DNA from: an uncultured bacterium
GTDB lineage: Bacteria; Desulfobacterota; Deferrimicrobia; J040
Assembly: GCA_964429585.1 (NCBI GenBank)
Contig: CAYSCN010000010.1
Coordinates: 4,622-68,621 of the forward strand
Direction: 5' to 3'
Length of the DNA: 64,000 nucleotides
Shown: piece after piece, positions 21,843 through 24,776 of the stretch
Position numbering within the stretch: the first letter of the stretch is position 1
Layout of the letters: each line of letters starts with the position of its first letter
The notes under the pieces: generated by a model
What the model was told of the DNA's origin: nothing
Seen by the model: the letters and a program-made list of their open reading frames with translations, nothing else
The model's database searches: none
Translations under genes and position numbers: made by a program

Positions 21843-24776
21843 GTGAAGGTTCGTCTTGCACTTCTGCTCGCGGTCGTTTTCGTTGCATCTGTGGTTCCTT
21901 TTTCTTTTTCTCGCGCTGCGGGGATGTTCAGAGAGGAAAAGTGCGCCATATGCCACATCTACGATTCGAAGTATTTCGATGAGACCGTTATCCCAGAGAA
22001 AGATCCCCTCGAAAGAGAGAGGAGGATGTGTTTTTCGTGTCACCTGGGGGCCGTGGATGATCTGGGGAAGAAACTTCTCGCGGGCTCTCATCACCCGACG
22101 GTCAGTGTGATGCGAAAGAGCCTGAAAACAGGCAGAAGAAGGAAGGTGGAGGGGTGCTCCGTTTGTCACACGCCTCACACGGAGATCGGTTGGGAAGGGT
22201 TTGCCGGGACATCTCTCTCGATATACATGGGGGGCGAAAAGATTTGCGTATCATGTCACACGTTGTACGGGGACAATGGTGAGGGAAATCATCACAAATA
22301 TGGTGATAAGGAAGCGTGTCTGACCTGCCACACGATGCACGGAGGATGGGGAAAGGCGCTTCTCAAAGACAGCTATCAGAGGCTGTGTCTTCGCTGTCAT
22401 GAGCCGGTGAAGGAAATGTTCGAGAAGGGAAAGGGGCACCCCGTGGGAAAGGTGGTGAGGGAGCCTGTGATGATACTCGGGGAAGAGAGAGTCGGTGAGC
22501 CGGAGGTTCTAAACCTGTCGTGTTCGCTGTGCCACGACATGCACGTGGAGGGGAGCGAAAAAGGGCTGTTGTCGATGGACCCTGAAAAGCTCTGTCGGAG
22601 CTGTCACGAAGGATATGTGGGAAGCGGCACGGGAATGGAGAACAACGGGAATCATCCGGCCAGCGTGTCCTGTATGGAGTGTCACGAGGTTCACTCGTAC
22701 GCAAGAAAAGATGAAAAAGGTTCCGCGACTCTATGCCTTTCCTGTCACAGTGATAAGTCAGGCGGTGGTGAAAATCATCCAGCGTCCAAAAAAGCGGGCG
22801 GAAGGTTCGGCTGTCTGGGGTGCCATTCCCTCCACAGAGGAGTGGTGGGAACTTCTAACTTGAGGAAAAGGAACGATACGTTTTGCCTAGAATGTCATGA
22901 GAAATACAACACCCTGAACGAGAAAGTGAGTCCTCCGCTTTCCCATCCGGTTTTCGTGGAGATTGCCGATAGTAAGAAAAGAGCCGGATTACAGGAGAGA
23001 GGTGGAGTTTTCGGCAAATTCGGTGAGATGATATGCCGGACGTGTCACTCTGTTCACCGGGGAGAGAAAAAGGGGCTTTTGATTGCATCTTCGGAAGTAA
23101 TTTGTGCCGTCTGCCACGGTAAAAAGGAGATCGTTCATGGTAGCAAGGATCTTTCATGCGCCGAGTGTCATGCTCCCCATGGAATTCGCGATGTTGATTC
23201 TATGTCGGATAGCGAAATGAATCCTGTTAAATTCGTGTGTCTGAAGTGTCACGGTGAAAAAAGCGGGCACCCGGAAGTTATTGACGTGAGGGGTGGAAGT
23301 AAGGAAAAGTTGCCTCTGTTCAACAATAGAGGGGAGGAGGCGTATAAAGGATATGTCACCTGTCCTACCTGTCACGACCCTCACGGCGGAAGCGAGAATG
23401 CAGACCTTCTGAGAAAACCATACGAGGGCGTTTCTTTTCTCTGTCTCTCATGTCACAGGGACAAGGAGGGGATTACGCTCACACCGCACGATCTTCGATT
23501 CATCGTGTCCGAGAATCTTTGCGAACCCTGTCACGAGCCTCATTTCGGGGGAGAGCGCTTCATGTGGGGAATGGGAGAGGGCGATGGGAAATCCATGAAA
23601 GAAATGTTGTGCATCTCCTGTCACACTCCCGGAGGGCTTGCTGAGCCAGTCGATTTTGGCGAGGGCCACCCCGTTGATATCATACCGTCGGTGAAGAAGG
23701 GAATACCCCTGCCGTTTTTCGATTCTTTCTGGCGGAAGAATGAGCTCGGGATGGTCACGTGTCCCACGTGCCACAACGTACATGGAGAAAATATAAGCGC
23801 CATTCCGGATCAAAGACAGGGATTGCTCAATTTGAGGTACAGTTTCGGCGATCAGGAGGGCTTCATCGAAAGAAGAAATTTCTGCGTCATCTGTCACGTC
23901 GAGAAGAAGGGAATGAAACTGGGGCCCCACGGTAAAAAAAGATGTGAAGATTGCCATATGATTCACGTGAGTGGAAAGGAGAAGGGAGTTCCCCCTCTTC
24001 CGGACCTTTGTGTCGAGTGTCATAACGATGTGCCTGAAAGGGAAGCCTTTGTGTTCGAGATCTTGGGGAAGAAAAAGCCCGAGGATATGCACGTGTCGGA
24101 GAAGGCTGTTTTCCTGATGGAGAACGGACGATTGGGCACGGATGGAGTGGTGTCCTGTCCGAGCTGTCATGACCCACATGCTTCTTCCGCGGATTCGAAG
24201 AAGTCGTTTGTTGGAGGAAATCCGTCGGCTCCCTGTTTGCTCTGTCACCCAGAGAAAGCCCAACTCAAAGGCAGTCCTCACGATTTGGACGATGAAAATT
24301 TGTGTGGAGAGTGTCACGGAATGTGCCTTGTCAAATTTACGAAAAATGATATGAAGGAAATCACGGAGGATTTCGGCGCGAATCCCGCCGATGCCAAATG
24401 CATATTCTGCCATTCGGACTTTGCGGACGAAGGGTTCTACTTTACCCACCCGAAAAAGGTAACCCCGGTGAAGAGTTCCTATGGGGCTACGGTTTTCGTG
24501 GGTTCTGATGTTGTGATGGTCTCTAAGTTGCCAGGGAGCTCTTCCGTGAAATATCCTCTTTTCGATGAAAATGGTAGGATGAGGGAAAGCGGAACTCTCG
24601 GCTGCAGGACTTGCCATGACCCGCACCTGGAAAATAAAATTGAAGATAAGGAGACATATTTCCTGAGAGATTCATCGGGATTGTTCATTTCTTACATCTG
24701 CCTCCCCTGTCATGGTTCGGATGCCCGGGATCACGTGCTCAAATTTCACAGCTTGAAGCGGAAGGAATATGATTGA
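21843..24776 (+). CDS. giant multihaem c-type cytochrome with 30 CxxCH motifs, secreted
   Basis: 977 aa; signal peptide MKVRLALLLAVVFVASVVPFSFSRAAG; 30 CxxCH motifs counted manually, most followed by the distal His pattern CxxCH(D/T/S)PH. Confidence 0.9.
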   Translation: MKVRLALLLAVVFVASVVPFSFSRAAGMFREEKCAICHIYDSKYFDETVIPEKDPLERERRMCFSCHLGAVDDLGKKLLAGSHHPTVSVMRKSLKTGRRRKVEGCSVCHTPHTEIGWEGFAGTSLSIYMGGEKICVSCHTLYGDNGEGNHHKYGDKEACLTCHTMHGGWGKALLKDSYQRLCLRCHEPVKEMFEKGKGHPVGKVVREPVMILGEERVGEPEVLNLSCSLCHDMHVEGSEKGLLSMDPEKLCRSCHEGYVGSGTGMENNGNHPASVSCMECHEVHSYARKDEKGSATLCLSCHSDKSGGGENHPASKKAGGRFGCLGCHSLHRGVVGTSNLRKRNDTFCLECHEKYNTLNEKVSPPLSHPVFVEIADSKKRAGLQERGGVFGKFGEMICRTCHSVHRGEKKGLLIASSEVICAVCHGKKEIVHGSKDLSCAECHAPHGIRDVDSMSDSEMNPVKFVCLKCHGEKSGHPEVIDVRGGSKEKLPLFNNRGEEAYKGYVTCPTCHDPHGGSENADLLRKPYEGVSFLCLSCHRDKEGITLTPHDLRFIVSENLCEPCHEPHFGGERFMWGMGEGDGKSMKEMLCISCHTPGGLAEPVDFGEGHPVDIIPSVKKGIPLPFFDSFWRKNELGMVTCPTCHNVHGENISAIPDQRQGLLNLRYSFGDQEGFIERRNFCVICHVEKKGMKLGPHGKKRCEDCHMIHVSGKEKGVPPLPDLCVECHNDVPEREAFVFEILGKKKPEDMHVSEKAVFLMENGRLGTDGVVSCPSCHDPHASSADSKKSFVGGNPSAPCLLCHPEKAQLKGSPHDLDDENLCGECHGMCLVKFTKNDMKEITEDFGANPADAKCIFCHSDFADEGFYFTHPKKVTPVKSSYGATVFVGSDVVMVSKLPGSSSVKYPLFDENGRMRESGTLGCRTCHDPHLENKIEDKETYFLRDSSGLFISYICLPCHGSDARDHVLKFHSLKRKEYD

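Follow-up and report, generated by a model that had tools for sequence, protein, structure and literature searches.

The 30-haem cytochrome MHC30

The window (the whole 64-kb stretch of DNA that was analysed) carries on its + strand, like every other feature described here, a 977-aa ORF for a putative 30-haem c-type cytochrome, MHC30 (21843..24776). Its GTG start codon, which lies 8 nt 3′ of the Shine–Dalgarno sequence AGAGGA, is needed because the predicted Sec-type signal peptide MKVRLALLLAVVFVASVVPFSFSRA^AG (residues 1–26, 21843..21920; hydrophobic segment, residues 5–23; predicted cleavage after SRA) is encoded only from this codon. A signal peptide is predicted in every MHC30 orthologue, and a sequence scan revealed no membrane anchor or lipobox in MHC30 besides it. 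The protein had been described as secreted in a sequence-only reading of this DNA; the signal peptide bears this out for export across the inner membrane, but not for anything beyond it. The mature apoprotein is ~105 kDa, or ~124 kDa with its haems.

MHC30 contains exactly 30 CxxCH motifs, while a motif scan of the protein returned no CxxxCH, CxxxxCH or CxxCK variants. It has 61 Cys and 61 His, and all but one of the Cys (60/61) lie inside haem motifs; 20,000 shuffles of its residues gave a mean of 0.23 CxxCH motifs and a maximum of 4, against the 30 observed. The length of 977 aa and the count of 30 sites thus agree with those first reported, as does the proposed spacing of one haem every ~32 residues (on average 31.7 residues for each haem of the mature chain). 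The sites had also been called mostly CxxCHxPH; only 6/30 are of this form, and even CxxCHxxH accounts for just 13/30. The CxxCHxxH motifs alternate strictly with plain CxxCH, the ‘doubled CXXCH’ pattern of Pfam. By its CxxCH sites and predicted export, MHC30 belongs to the c-type multihaem cytochromes, with haem occupancy predicted, and it is most likely for the greater part bis-His-ligated.

The profile matches agree with this assignment. Pfam PF09699 (Paired_CXXCH_1) matched MHC30 over nine stretches (E value 3.3e-55, 183.9 bits, cut-off 20.6) and NCBIfam TIGR01905 matched with 140 bits (E value 1.3e-41, cut-off 25.2), so that by profile score, with both family cut-offs exceeded, MHC30 is a doubled/paired CXXCH multihaem cytochrome; Cytochrom_c3_2 and Cytochrome_C7 were further Pfam matches. 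The DmsE/MtrA decahaem family TIGR03508 reached 176.3 bits across six stretches, below its cut-off of 192.2. Judged by these scores, the modules of MHC30 are homologous to DmsE/MtrA, yet the protein, with this score and 30 haems, is no member of TIGR03508. The repeat unit comprises two or four haems, and MHC30 probably arose as di- and tetra-haem modules of the MtrA/DmsE type were duplicated in tandem. A polymer of c7-type domains (the GSU1996/GSU2210 class, built of trihaem c7 units with one His-Met haem each) was considered and rejected on this repeat unit of two or four haems; the whole protein has only two conserved Met, and PDB 3ov0 gave a weak match (E value 3.9e-6). No likeness in sequence or fold to the 4–8-haem filament subunits OmcS, OmcE and OmcZ was found for MHC30.

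AlphaFold2 with a 29-sequence alignment returned a model of pLDDT 50 and pTM 0.34, which we discarded. With 79 sequences, and haem-free, the best model had a mean pLDDT of 66.8 and a pTM of 0.47; its N-terminal third fell below a pLDDT of 50, leaving a usable span of ~340–977, and Foldseek returned no match for it. By analogy, we infer a linear haem-chain geometry for MHC30.

All 16 full-length orthologues (31–37 % identity, similar length, different assemblies) possess 30 sites, and the 30 haem sites of MHC30 are kept in 17/17 sequences of the orthologue alignment. This conservation bears on the one condition that the sequence-only reading had named against itself, an assembly or sequencing error that fused several smaller cytochrome genes. 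We regard such an artefact as extremely improbable: the orthologues contradict it, as do two independent assemblies, one from Logan with an identical 977-aa ORF except for one substitution, and one a JGI metagenome contig holding the same cluster and the first 860 MHC30 codons before the contig ends. Moreover, the gene contains no DNA repeats >29 nt, and its GC and GC3 are those of the neighbouring genes; nothing in favour of a fusion was found among the orthologues, assemblies, repeats and GC examined. At one position MHC30 departs from its relatives: codon 828 (TGC, 24324..24326) encodes Cys at a site that is the distal CxxCHxxH His in 28/28 aligned relatives. Cys828 is also encoded in the independent assembly P0121; it is a natural His-to-Cys distal-ligand variant, useful for probing the effect of one altered haem on transport along the chain.

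A conserved module around MHC30

MHC30 is the last gene of a tightly packed conserved module in the order 12-haem cytochrome, TolQ/ExbB-like, TolR/ExbD-like, TonB-like, anchored pentahaem cytochrome, cytochrome b-TPR, small dihaem protein, NHL, DUF4177 and MHC30. In the MBNT15-related lineage the module is found at one fixed place in the core genome; it also occurs, between unrelated flanks, in other uncultured bacteria. Its genes are probably co-transcribed, in which case MHC30 would be the final cytochrome gene of the transcript.

The 12-haem cytochrome (446 aa, 15253..16593) carries a signal peptide/anchor, 12 CxxCH motifs and matches to Pfam Cytochrome_C7, Paired_CXXCH_1 and MtrC/MtrF domain II/IV; it is found immediately 5′ of exbB in all loci of the MHC30-module type. 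The pentahaem cytochrome (253 aa, 18514..19275; five CxxCH) has an N-terminal signal/anchor, a C-terminal TM helix and weak NrfH/NapC-like matches. It is followed by a putative dihaem cytochrome b with a C-terminal TPR (317 aa, 19265..20218; four TM segments; Ni_hydr_CYTB at 8e-6, below cut-off, plus TPR), in which the alignment identified H23, H52, H66 (WX3HX13H), H154 and H169 as invariant. We propose that this cytochrome b, of the FdnI/HydC type, provides a quinol/quinone site. In two loci, L006 and L087, the pentahaem cytochrome and cytochrome b are fused into one protein. The small dihaem protein (179 aa, 20208..20747; two CxxCH), anchored by one N-terminal TM segment, has a counterpart at the same place in the orthologous loci and in L006 and L087.

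An exported NHL-repeat protein (294 aa, 20726..21610; Pfam NHL 8e-11, DUF5128 1e-8), a predicted six-bladed β-propeller, is encoded next. Its gene ends 233 nt 5′ of MHC30, and the only ORF between the two is DUF4177-like (68 aa, 21634..21840; Pfam DUF4177 3e-5, just below cut-off), lacks a signal peptide and stops 2 nt 5′ of the MHC30 start. A DUF4177-like ORF lies immediately 5′ of the giant cytochrome in 12 loci. Linkage to NHL is wider: across many phyla, 68/83 related loci have an NHL homologue within 10 kb of a giant cytochrome, on the same strand in 67 of the 68 pairs and at most 300 nt away in 46. With its same-strand NHL neighbour, the MHC30 locus is an NHL-propeller-associated giant cytochrome module.

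Between the 12-haem and pentahaem cytochrome genes lie an ExbB/TolQ-like proton-channel protein (221 aa, 16618..17283; Pfam MotA_ExbB 1.5e-32), an ExbD/TolR-like protein (141 aa, 17264..17689; Pfam ExbD 3e-27) and X272 (17699..18517). The top NCBIfam matches of the former two were TolQ (1.4e-33; 116 bits, cut-off 221) and TolR (4.8e-15, below cut-off); all four equivalog models (TolQ, ExbB, TolR and ExbD) remained below cut-off, with TolQR scoring above ExbBD. X272 is TonB/TolA-like by its architecture in the alignment, namely an N-terminal TM helix with an invariant His20, a Pro-rich and then Gly-rich linker, and a conserved C-terminal domain of ~100 aa. It had no Pfam, NCBIfam or PDB match and no detectable TonB_C or TolA domain; a PDB profile search for TonB/TolA returned only low-complexity Gly-rich noise and was rejected. 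Among 5.8 billion proteins, the X272 family amounts to only 24 clusters, and all the members looked up are in this module.

Upstream of the cytochrome genes, an exported PEGA-domain protein (417 aa, 13977..15230; Pfam PEGA 1.7e-9) is encoded in the MBNT15-type loci and missing from L006 and L087. A hydrophobic stretch near its C-terminus was read by eye as a TM anchor, although it lies below the threshold of the TM scan. Directly 5′ of the module are fur (10672-11097; Pfam FUR), feoB (11085-13097; Pfam FeoB_N/FeoB_C) and a dtxR-feoA fusion (13235-14002; Pfam Fe_dep_repr_C and FeoA), the latter given as the longest ORF, with a true start probably later; the three have the same order in orthologous loci, and the dtxR-feoA ORF shares 26 nt with the first gene of the module. 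A Pfam/neighbourhood survey revealed no porin-like gene, and no MtrB/DmsF-type sheathing β-barrel next to MHC30, either between 10672 and 28592 or in the orthologous loci. The module encodes no clear outer-membrane lipoprotein cytochrome, and Rfam returned no match in the 64-kb window.

Comparison with known systems

Giant cytochromes of a similar type have been described before. MtrA/DmsE (Shewanella MtrCAB, PDB 6R2Q chain A) has 10 haems rather than 30, and MHC30 is ~3× as long. The MtrB-type porin and MtrC-type lipoprotein of MtrCAB do not adjoin MHC30, whose neighbours are instead an NHL propeller, a cytochrome b and the TolQR/TonB-like set. With the OmcS, OmcE and OmcZ nanowires MHC30 would share closely stacked bis-His haems and long-distance conduction, both predicted in its case.

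Geobacter too has giant cytochromes beside NHL genes, the GSU2495 class (26 haems, ~70 kDa) and Gmet_0556-0558 (NHL, 4-haem, 27-haem), and genetic evidence implicates the trio of NHL protein, small cytochrome and giant cytochrome in the reduction of Fe(III) oxide (PMC10989804). In Geobacter sp. AOG1 we found a 26-haem homologue of MHC30 (BLASTP 1e-28, 25 % identity) whose haem motifs align in register; genes for a 16-haem cytochrome and an NHL protein come after it. Identity between MHC30 and the Geobacter proteins is ~22–25 %, GSU2495 and Gmet_0558 being compared by description only, and the latter group is more peptide-minimised (~25 aa per haem). Furthermore, the Geobacter locus encodes a SurA-like PPIase and lacks the ExbBD, X272 and cytochrome b-TPR of the MHC30 module.

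In PCC3, a porin-cytochrome cluster of Fe(II) oxidisers, a cytochrome of 21–27 haems is proposed to reach across the whole periplasm, in which it is located (He et al. 2017, PMC5566968; Hoover et al. 2023, PMC10734462). Like MHC30, it is a very large, repeat-built cytochrome with a low aa/haem ratio, and both clusters encode an inner-membrane protein of ~300 aa with the WX3HX13H motif thought to bind two b haems (W48-x3-H52-x13-H66 in the window). However, the PCC3 inner-membrane protein has five TM segments and two such motifs, whereas the cytochrome b described here has four predicted TM segments and one motif, plus a TPR. A large porin and an extracellular cytochrome define PCC3, and the MHC30 module encodes neither; no NHL or ExbBD genes have been described for PCC3. 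The module thus falls outside the PCC3 cluster definition and is set apart from PCC3 by the description of that cluster.

Multihaem wires also occur with exported NHL propellers in the Uet cluster of Ca. Tenderia (UetHI) and in DFE_448-465 of Desulfovibrio ferrophilus IS5, where a stabilising effect of the propellers on cytochrome complexes of the envelope has been suggested (10.1101/2022.05.06.490989; PMC5815863). Their cytochromes are far smaller than MHC30 (3–14 haems), both clusters lack the cytochrome b-TPR and the TolQR/TonB-like set, and Uet has its own β-barrel (UetC), unlike the porin-less MHC30 module.

Proposed role and alternative explanations

The reading we favour, and consider somewhat probable, is that MHC30 is a long wire that leads from a quinone-linked membrane module through the periplasm to the outer envelope and serves extracellular electron transfer. 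Electrons would enter or leave the quinone pool via the dihaem cytochrome b and the anchored pentahaem cytochrome, a pair that resembles Geobacter CbcL. The small anchored cytochromes may then pass them on to MHC30, which would form one long insulated haem chain of ~25 nm at MtrA scaling, or up to ~35–39 nm at the scaling of the modelled 27-haem Geobacter protein, and carry them over the periplasm to the outer envelope or beyond; the direction of flow is unreadable from sequence. The exported NHL β-propeller may be a partner for docking or scaffolding. Judged by its LepA, the host belongs to the MBNT15/Deferrimicrobia-related lineage, which is widespread in sediment and peat and is a predicted iron respirer; the likely role is therefore to deliver electrons outside the cell, to Fe(III) or another insoluble acceptor. 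We infer the cellular location, partners and substrate of MHC30 in this sense. Against this reading stands that the module encodes neither an outer-membrane porin nor a lipoprotein cytochrome by which electrons would cross the outer membrane.

The interpretation first given, a likely terminal extracellular reductase or wire, is partly supported: the best reading is a wire, and the terminal reductase figures in a rival. In that rival, which we think unlikely, MHC30 is itself extracellular: a monomeric wire at the cell surface, a terminal reductase for Fe(III), or a polymerising nanowire subunit of the OmcS/OmcE/OmcZ type. It is consistent with a signal peptide that is accompanied by no membrane anchor or lipobox, with an estimated length above the quoted periplasm width of ~170 Å, and with the related Geobacter proteins: the 27-haem class, encoded outside a porin operon, is predicted to be extracellular at ~350 Å (PMC11492766), and Gmet_0558 is regarded as an outer-surface contact (PMC10989804). 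Alternatively, there is a slim chance that MHC30 is no spanning conduit and rather a periplasmic electron store, a capacitor for up to 30 electrons. The missing porin would suit a store, and electron storage is one of two functions suggested for cytochromes of very large size (PMC11492766, PMC10734462), but a store would leave unexplained the strict linkage to the NHL propeller, the quinol-active membrane module and the motor, as well as the upkeep of exactly 30 sites at 31–37 % identity.

The neighbouring genes raise two further explanations. The fur-feoB-dtxR/feoA genes next to the module, like its TonB-like motor, are compatible as well with a role in iron acquisition or homeostasis, in which periplasmic cytochromes under Fur/DtxR control reduce TonB-imported Fe(III) to Fe(II) for FeoB. 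The iron genes lie on the same strand immediately 5′ of the module, an arrangement held across the lineage and tightened by the 26-nt overlap; FeoB and Fur also adjoin giant cytochromes in two Nitrospirota loci (L033, L072), and ExbB/ExbD/TonB-like genes are the classic energisers of iron uptake. Nevertheless, we consider this role improbable, as the same module occurs in L006 and L087 without feo, fur or dtxR nearby, no TonB-dependent receptor is encoded, the stator proteins score higher as TolQR than as ExbBD (both below cut-off), and at least 49 covalent c-type haems would be implausibly iron-expensive for an uptake device. A scan for Fur and IdeR boxes, moreover, returned none within three mismatches of the consensus, and the best Fur-box match (four mismatches, 26454) lies at the end of ftsB, not 5′ of the module. 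On the 3′ side, an FAD-type oxidoreductase-like protein (439 aa, 24769..26088; weak matches to DAO, 3.5e-3, and the geranylgeranyl-reductase family, 4e-8) had been suggested to form a coupled flavin/haem redox pair with MHC30. The overlap of 8 nt on which this was based is correct, with the FAD gene starting at an ATG at 24769, and the same adjacency is seen in L001, L007, L012 and L014. By a sequence scan, the FAD-type protein lacks a signal peptide, a Tat motif and TM segments, which places it in another compartment than the exported cytochrome c; its gene is present in 5/13 orthologous loci and missing from 8/13 (~60 %), as well as from L006 and L087; and its family assignment is itself weak, with no match to the PDB by sequence. 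A coupled pair is thus unsupported and very improbable, and the FAD-type protein is a neighbour of MHC30 rather than a conserved partner. We also discarded a possible independent FAD–cytochrome linkage in L071, where ~4.7 kb and other genes separate the two and the contig, high in GC, is difficult to parse.

Returning to MHC30 as a wire, the TolQR/TonB-like motor beside this porin-less cytochrome module is strictly co-inherited and unexplained, and it is the most interesting lead of the analysis. It is possible, if doubtful, that MHC30 is the wire of an undescribed porin-less trans-envelope conduit in which a PMF-driven TolQR/ExbBD-like stator and its private X272 are integral. In such a conduit, the task of the motor at the outer envelope might be to position or extend the haem wire, or to insert or gate it.

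Giant haem wires made of a single chain are believed to let bacteria carry respiratory electrons over the whole envelope, and we know of none that has been characterised experimentally. To these MHC30 adds a well-defined family of orthologues in which precisely 30 sites are invariant, the modular repeat is clear, and a cytochrome b entry and an NHL protein are constant partners. If the motor is functionally tied to the MHC30 wire, it would represent a new way to build or operate an electron conduit.

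Reading frame, haem motifs and authenticity

The cytochrome gene at 21843–24776 (+), here MHC30, starts with GTG and encodes 977 residues with precisely 30 CxxCH motifs; variant motifs are absent. Length and motif count agree with the sequence-only reading. Of its 61 Cys, 60 lie inside the motifs, and there are also 61 His. In 20 000 shuffles of the protein's own residues, the mean was 0.23 motifs and the maximum 4; hence, chance cannot account for the pattern. A typical Sec signal peptide, ending SRA^AG, forms the N-terminus, and a Shine–Dalgarno sequence (AGAGGA) lies 8 nt 5′ of the GTG. 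Public databases already contain the sequence, without annotation; the NCBI copy (P0001, 950 aa, 100 % identical) is called from Met28 (21924) and lacks the signal peptide. As all orthologues have signal peptides, the GTG at 21843, with its good Shine–Dalgarno sequence, is the better and likely the true start, and the 950-aa call is likely a start-site mis-annotation.

An artificial assembly fusion of smaller cytochrome genes, an explanation raised alongside the original observation, is contradicted on several counts. Sixteen full-length orthologues from NCBI, JGI, ENA and Logan assemblies (31–37 % identity, 912–946 aa) each carry a signal peptide, ~60 Cys and exactly 30 CxxCH motifs; an independent Logan assembly has the 977-aa ORF too, differing by a single substitution; and the cluster recurs on a JGI metagenome contig (L086), which runs out after codon 860 of the gene. 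No DNA repeats longer than 29 nt occur inside the gene, and its GC and GC3 match those of neighbouring genes. The MHC30 gene is therefore not an artefact. In one MAG (GCA_027327605.1; L089, 14327–16966), the orthologous giant cytochrome appears as three gene calls, one on the opposite strand, probably on account of frameshift errors in that assembly.

Modular anatomy and family of MHC30

The motifs had been described as mostly CxxCHxPH, which overstates the case: this form accounts for 6/30 and CxxCHxxH for 13/30. CxxCHxxH motifs strictly alternate with plain CxxCH, and each plain motif is followed 10–26 residues later by a conserved His. In an alignment of 17 orthologues, the motif His is invariant at 30/30 sites, as are ~28 non-motif His, while Met574 and Met892 are conserved in 15/17 and 16/17, respectively; with these residues, axial ligands suffice for a chain that is mostly bis-His. 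Residue 828 (TGC, 24324–24326) is a Cys, also in the independent assembly, at the position of the second (distal) His of CxxCHxxH in 28/28 aligned relatives. The change from His requires two nucleotide substitutions and could give a His/Cys-ligated or five-coordinate haem within the chain.

A profile of residues 488–625, searched against the rest of the protein, matched residues 104–208 (E value 4e-5), 273–371 (3e-6), 389–431 (7e-7), 436–474 (4e-8), 623–712 (9e-12), 760–859 (9e-13) and 904–970 (5e-10). MHC30 is thus built of di- and tetra-haem modules in tandem. The match boundaries point to an arrangement of 2+4+4+2+4+4+4+4+2 = 30 haems, and the modular construction explains the occurrence of relatives with 18, 20, 24, 26, 28, 30 or 42 sites.

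Pfam returned Paired_CXXCH_1 (E value 3e-55, nine stretches), Cytochrom_c3_2 and Cytochrome_C7, and the best NCBIfam model was the DmsE/MtrA decahaem family (176 bits over six stretches; cut-off 192). Against all PDB sequences, the orthologue profile matched best to 6r2q chain A (E value 8.5e-17). Despite a misleading name field in the entry, this chain is MtrA (333 residues) from the Mtr complex; the Carboxydothermus undecahaem cytochrome, MtrC and GSU1996 came next. Structure comparison also favoured MtrA (6.0; 201 residues, 27 % identity) over OcwA (3.3), NrfB (3.2), OmcE (3.2) and OmcS (2.3). Sequence and modelled structure thus concur in pointing to MtrA-like modules, unlike nanowire subunits.

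When 1.84 billion cluster representatives were scanned in full with HMMER, 8,445 relatives passed E ≤ 1e-3, of which 2,369 passed 1e-10 and 365 passed 1e-30; MHC30 itself represents its own 50 %-identity cluster. The haem count, previously ranked among the largest for a single polypeptide, does lie in the long tail of cytochromes generally but is ordinary within the superfamily, as 34/141 newly listed proteins within the best 150 of the scan exceed 30 CxxCH. The highest counts in that set are 129 (P0374, 3,274 aa), 93 (P0348, 2,703 aa) and 73; the first two exceed the published maxima of 85 (PMC5566968) and, in Desulfuromonadia, 87 (PMC11492766). The maximum published within the MBNT15 phylum is 43 (PMC9386147). 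MHC30 is a giant MtrA-like paired-CXXCH cytochrome of NHL-propeller clusters, a kind already known.

The LepA encoded in the window has 80–82 % identity to a few MAGs, some labelled 'Deltaproteobacteria', and 71–73 % to many 'Candidatus Deferrimicrobiaceae' MAGs, relating the lineage to MBNT15/Deferrimicrobia, a group predicted to carry out dissimilatory iron reduction (PMC9386147). Among the species representatives of the genome collection, no MHC30 orthologue was closer than 36 %.

A conserved cytochrome module

MHC30 follows a run of same-strand (+) genes comprising fur (10672–11097), feoB (11085–13097), dtxR-feoA (13235–14002), a PEGA-domain protein (13977–15230), a 12-haem cytochrome (15253–16593), ExbB/TolQ-like (16618–17283) and ExbD/TolR-like (17264–17689) proteins, the TonB/TolA-like X272 (17699–18517), an anchored pentahaem cytochrome (18514–19275), a cytochrome b with TPR (19265–20218), an anchored dihaem protein (20208–20747), an NHL propeller (20726–21610) and a DUF4177/Sp36-like 68-aa ORF (21634–21840). 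A FAD-type gene (24769–26088, +) follows, then ftsB, a GGDEF gene and argS. Intergenic distances from dtxR-feoA through the FAD gene are −26 to +24 nt. The 68-aa ORF, which lacks a signal peptide and stops 2 nt short of the MHC30 start codon, occupies the same place in all ExbBD-type modules.

Gene order is identical in orthologous loci L001, L002, L008–L013 and L088, as are the wider flanks (ribosomal protein genes and rpoA upstream, argS and trp downstream); the module thus has a fixed core-genome position in the lineage. The stretch from the 12-haem to the giant cytochrome recurs in L006, L087 and L069, the pentahaem cytochrome being fused to cytochrome b in L006 and L087. Several AhpC/TSA-redoxin proteins surround the module in these two loci (two in L087 are fused to TPR repeats) and may be dedicated thiol-reducing maturation factors for haem-rich proteins. 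Elsewhere in the window, an exported DsbC/thioredoxin-like protein with a single CxxCH near its N-terminus (59127–59960, −) may act as a thiol-disulfide oxidoreductase, one that bears on the maturation of cytochromes. The order cytochrome, cytochrome b, small cytochrome, NHL, giant cytochrome is found in one Thermodesulfovibrionia locus (L033) and one Thiobacillus locus (L004).

The most widely linked partner is the NHL propeller: in 83 non-redundant loci encoding MHC30 relatives (Nitrospirota, Planctomycetota, Gamma-/Betaproteobacteria, Desulfobulbales, Acidobacteriota, Eisenbacteria, Geobacter and others), a homologue lies within 10 kb in 68, on the same strand in 67/68 and within 300 nt in 46. 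Four TM helices are predicted in the cytochrome b, which has five His that do not vary: H23 (TM1), H52 and H66 (TM2, W-x3-H-x13-H) and H154 and H169 (TM4). This is the dihaem pattern of the FdnI/HydC type. Paired with the pentahaem protein, the cytochrome b presumably resembles Geobacter CbcL, a fused b/c quinol oxidoreductase.

Embedded in the module is a divergent trio (16618–18517) of TolQ/ExbB-like and TolR/ExbD-like proteins and X272. ExbB matches TolQ best and ExbD matches TolR best, both under every equivalog cut-off. No profile recognises X272, whose architecture is that of TonB or TolA: a TM helix carrying an invariant His is followed by a linker, Pro-rich at first and Gly-rich further on, and by a C-terminal domain of ~100 residues that is conserved. 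Its family comprises 24 clusters in a 5.8-billion-protein database, and every member looked up sits in the same cytochrome module. An outer-membrane β-barrel gene is absent from every version of the ExbBD-type module. In contrast, the Thiobacillus locus (L004/L005, 1584–3335) encodes a 583-aa protein ending ...DYDLRF, a probable porin with β-barrel-like alternation and no Pfam match, together with a 24-haem MHC30 relative and, downstream, ResB/CcsA haem-attachment genes.

Proposed envelope electron transfer and competing readings

The best-supported reading is that MHC30 serves a module for electron transfer in the envelope as its long haem wire, and we infer its linearity, location, partners, substrate and direction of electron flow. 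[quoted passage not shown] MtrA arranges ten haems over ~80–100 Å (PMC5566968), and a modelled 27-haem Geobacter cytochrome is ~350 Å long against a periplasm width of ~170 Å (PMC11492766); scaled by analogy to these, MHC30 would measure about 25–39 nm if extended. Periplasmic cytochromes with 21–27 haems from PCC3, the porin-cytochrome cluster of Fe(II) oxidisers, have been assessed as long enough to bridge the periplasm (PMC10734462). Gmet_0556–0558 is a distant analogue, and genetic support, for a role in Fe(III) oxide reduction, exists only for the Geobacter genes (PMC10989804).

Other readings compete with the wire. The proposal of an extracellular reductase or wire agrees with the best-supported reading as far as the wire goes; an extracellular wire or reductase is a rival, and so is an electron store. 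A role in iron acquisition is a further rival. In its favour, fur, feoB and dtxR-feoA lie directly upstream throughout the lineage, and FeoB and Fur also sit beside unrelated giant cytochromes in two Nitrospirota loci (L033, L072), whose FeoB is nearer to that of the window (E value 1e-226) than is the FeoB of the MHC30-orthologue loci (1e-160); against it, the flanks of L006 and L087 are unrelated (AhpC/redoxin-TPR genes, no feo). The stretch at 10593–10650, upstream of fur, holds the top sigma-70-like promoter match of the region (TTGACA-17-TAGAAT plus a TG extension) and, directly after it, TTGAAATCGAATTTCAA, a perfect inverted repeat (7+3+7). The repeat is a candidate operator through which iron could control the fur-feoB unit and perhaps the cluster as a whole.

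The 8-nt overlap between MHC30 and the FAD gene is real, but the coupled flavin/haem pair drawn from it in the sequence-only reading is not supported. The FAD-type protein has weak matches to FAD-dependent families, none to the PDB, and a GxGxxG dinucleotide-binding motif starting at residue 19. Lacking a signal peptide, a Tat motif and any TM segment, it should be cytoplasmic; c-type cytochromes mature outside the cytoplasm. The gene follows the cytochrome in the window, L001, L007, L012 and L014 and is missing from eight orthologous loci (L002, L008, L009, L010, L011, L013, L015 and L088) as well as L006 and L087. The overlap is thus a matter of densely packed operon genes and does not mark a conserved redox pair.

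Our literature search found no description of such a module strictly coupled to a private TolQR/TonB-like motor without a porin and no paper combining multiheme, ExbB, ExbD and NHL; neither ExbB nor NHL comes up in the MBNT15 genome paper (PMC9386147). The leads to follow are the coupling of the motor to a porin-less module and the natural His828Cys change.
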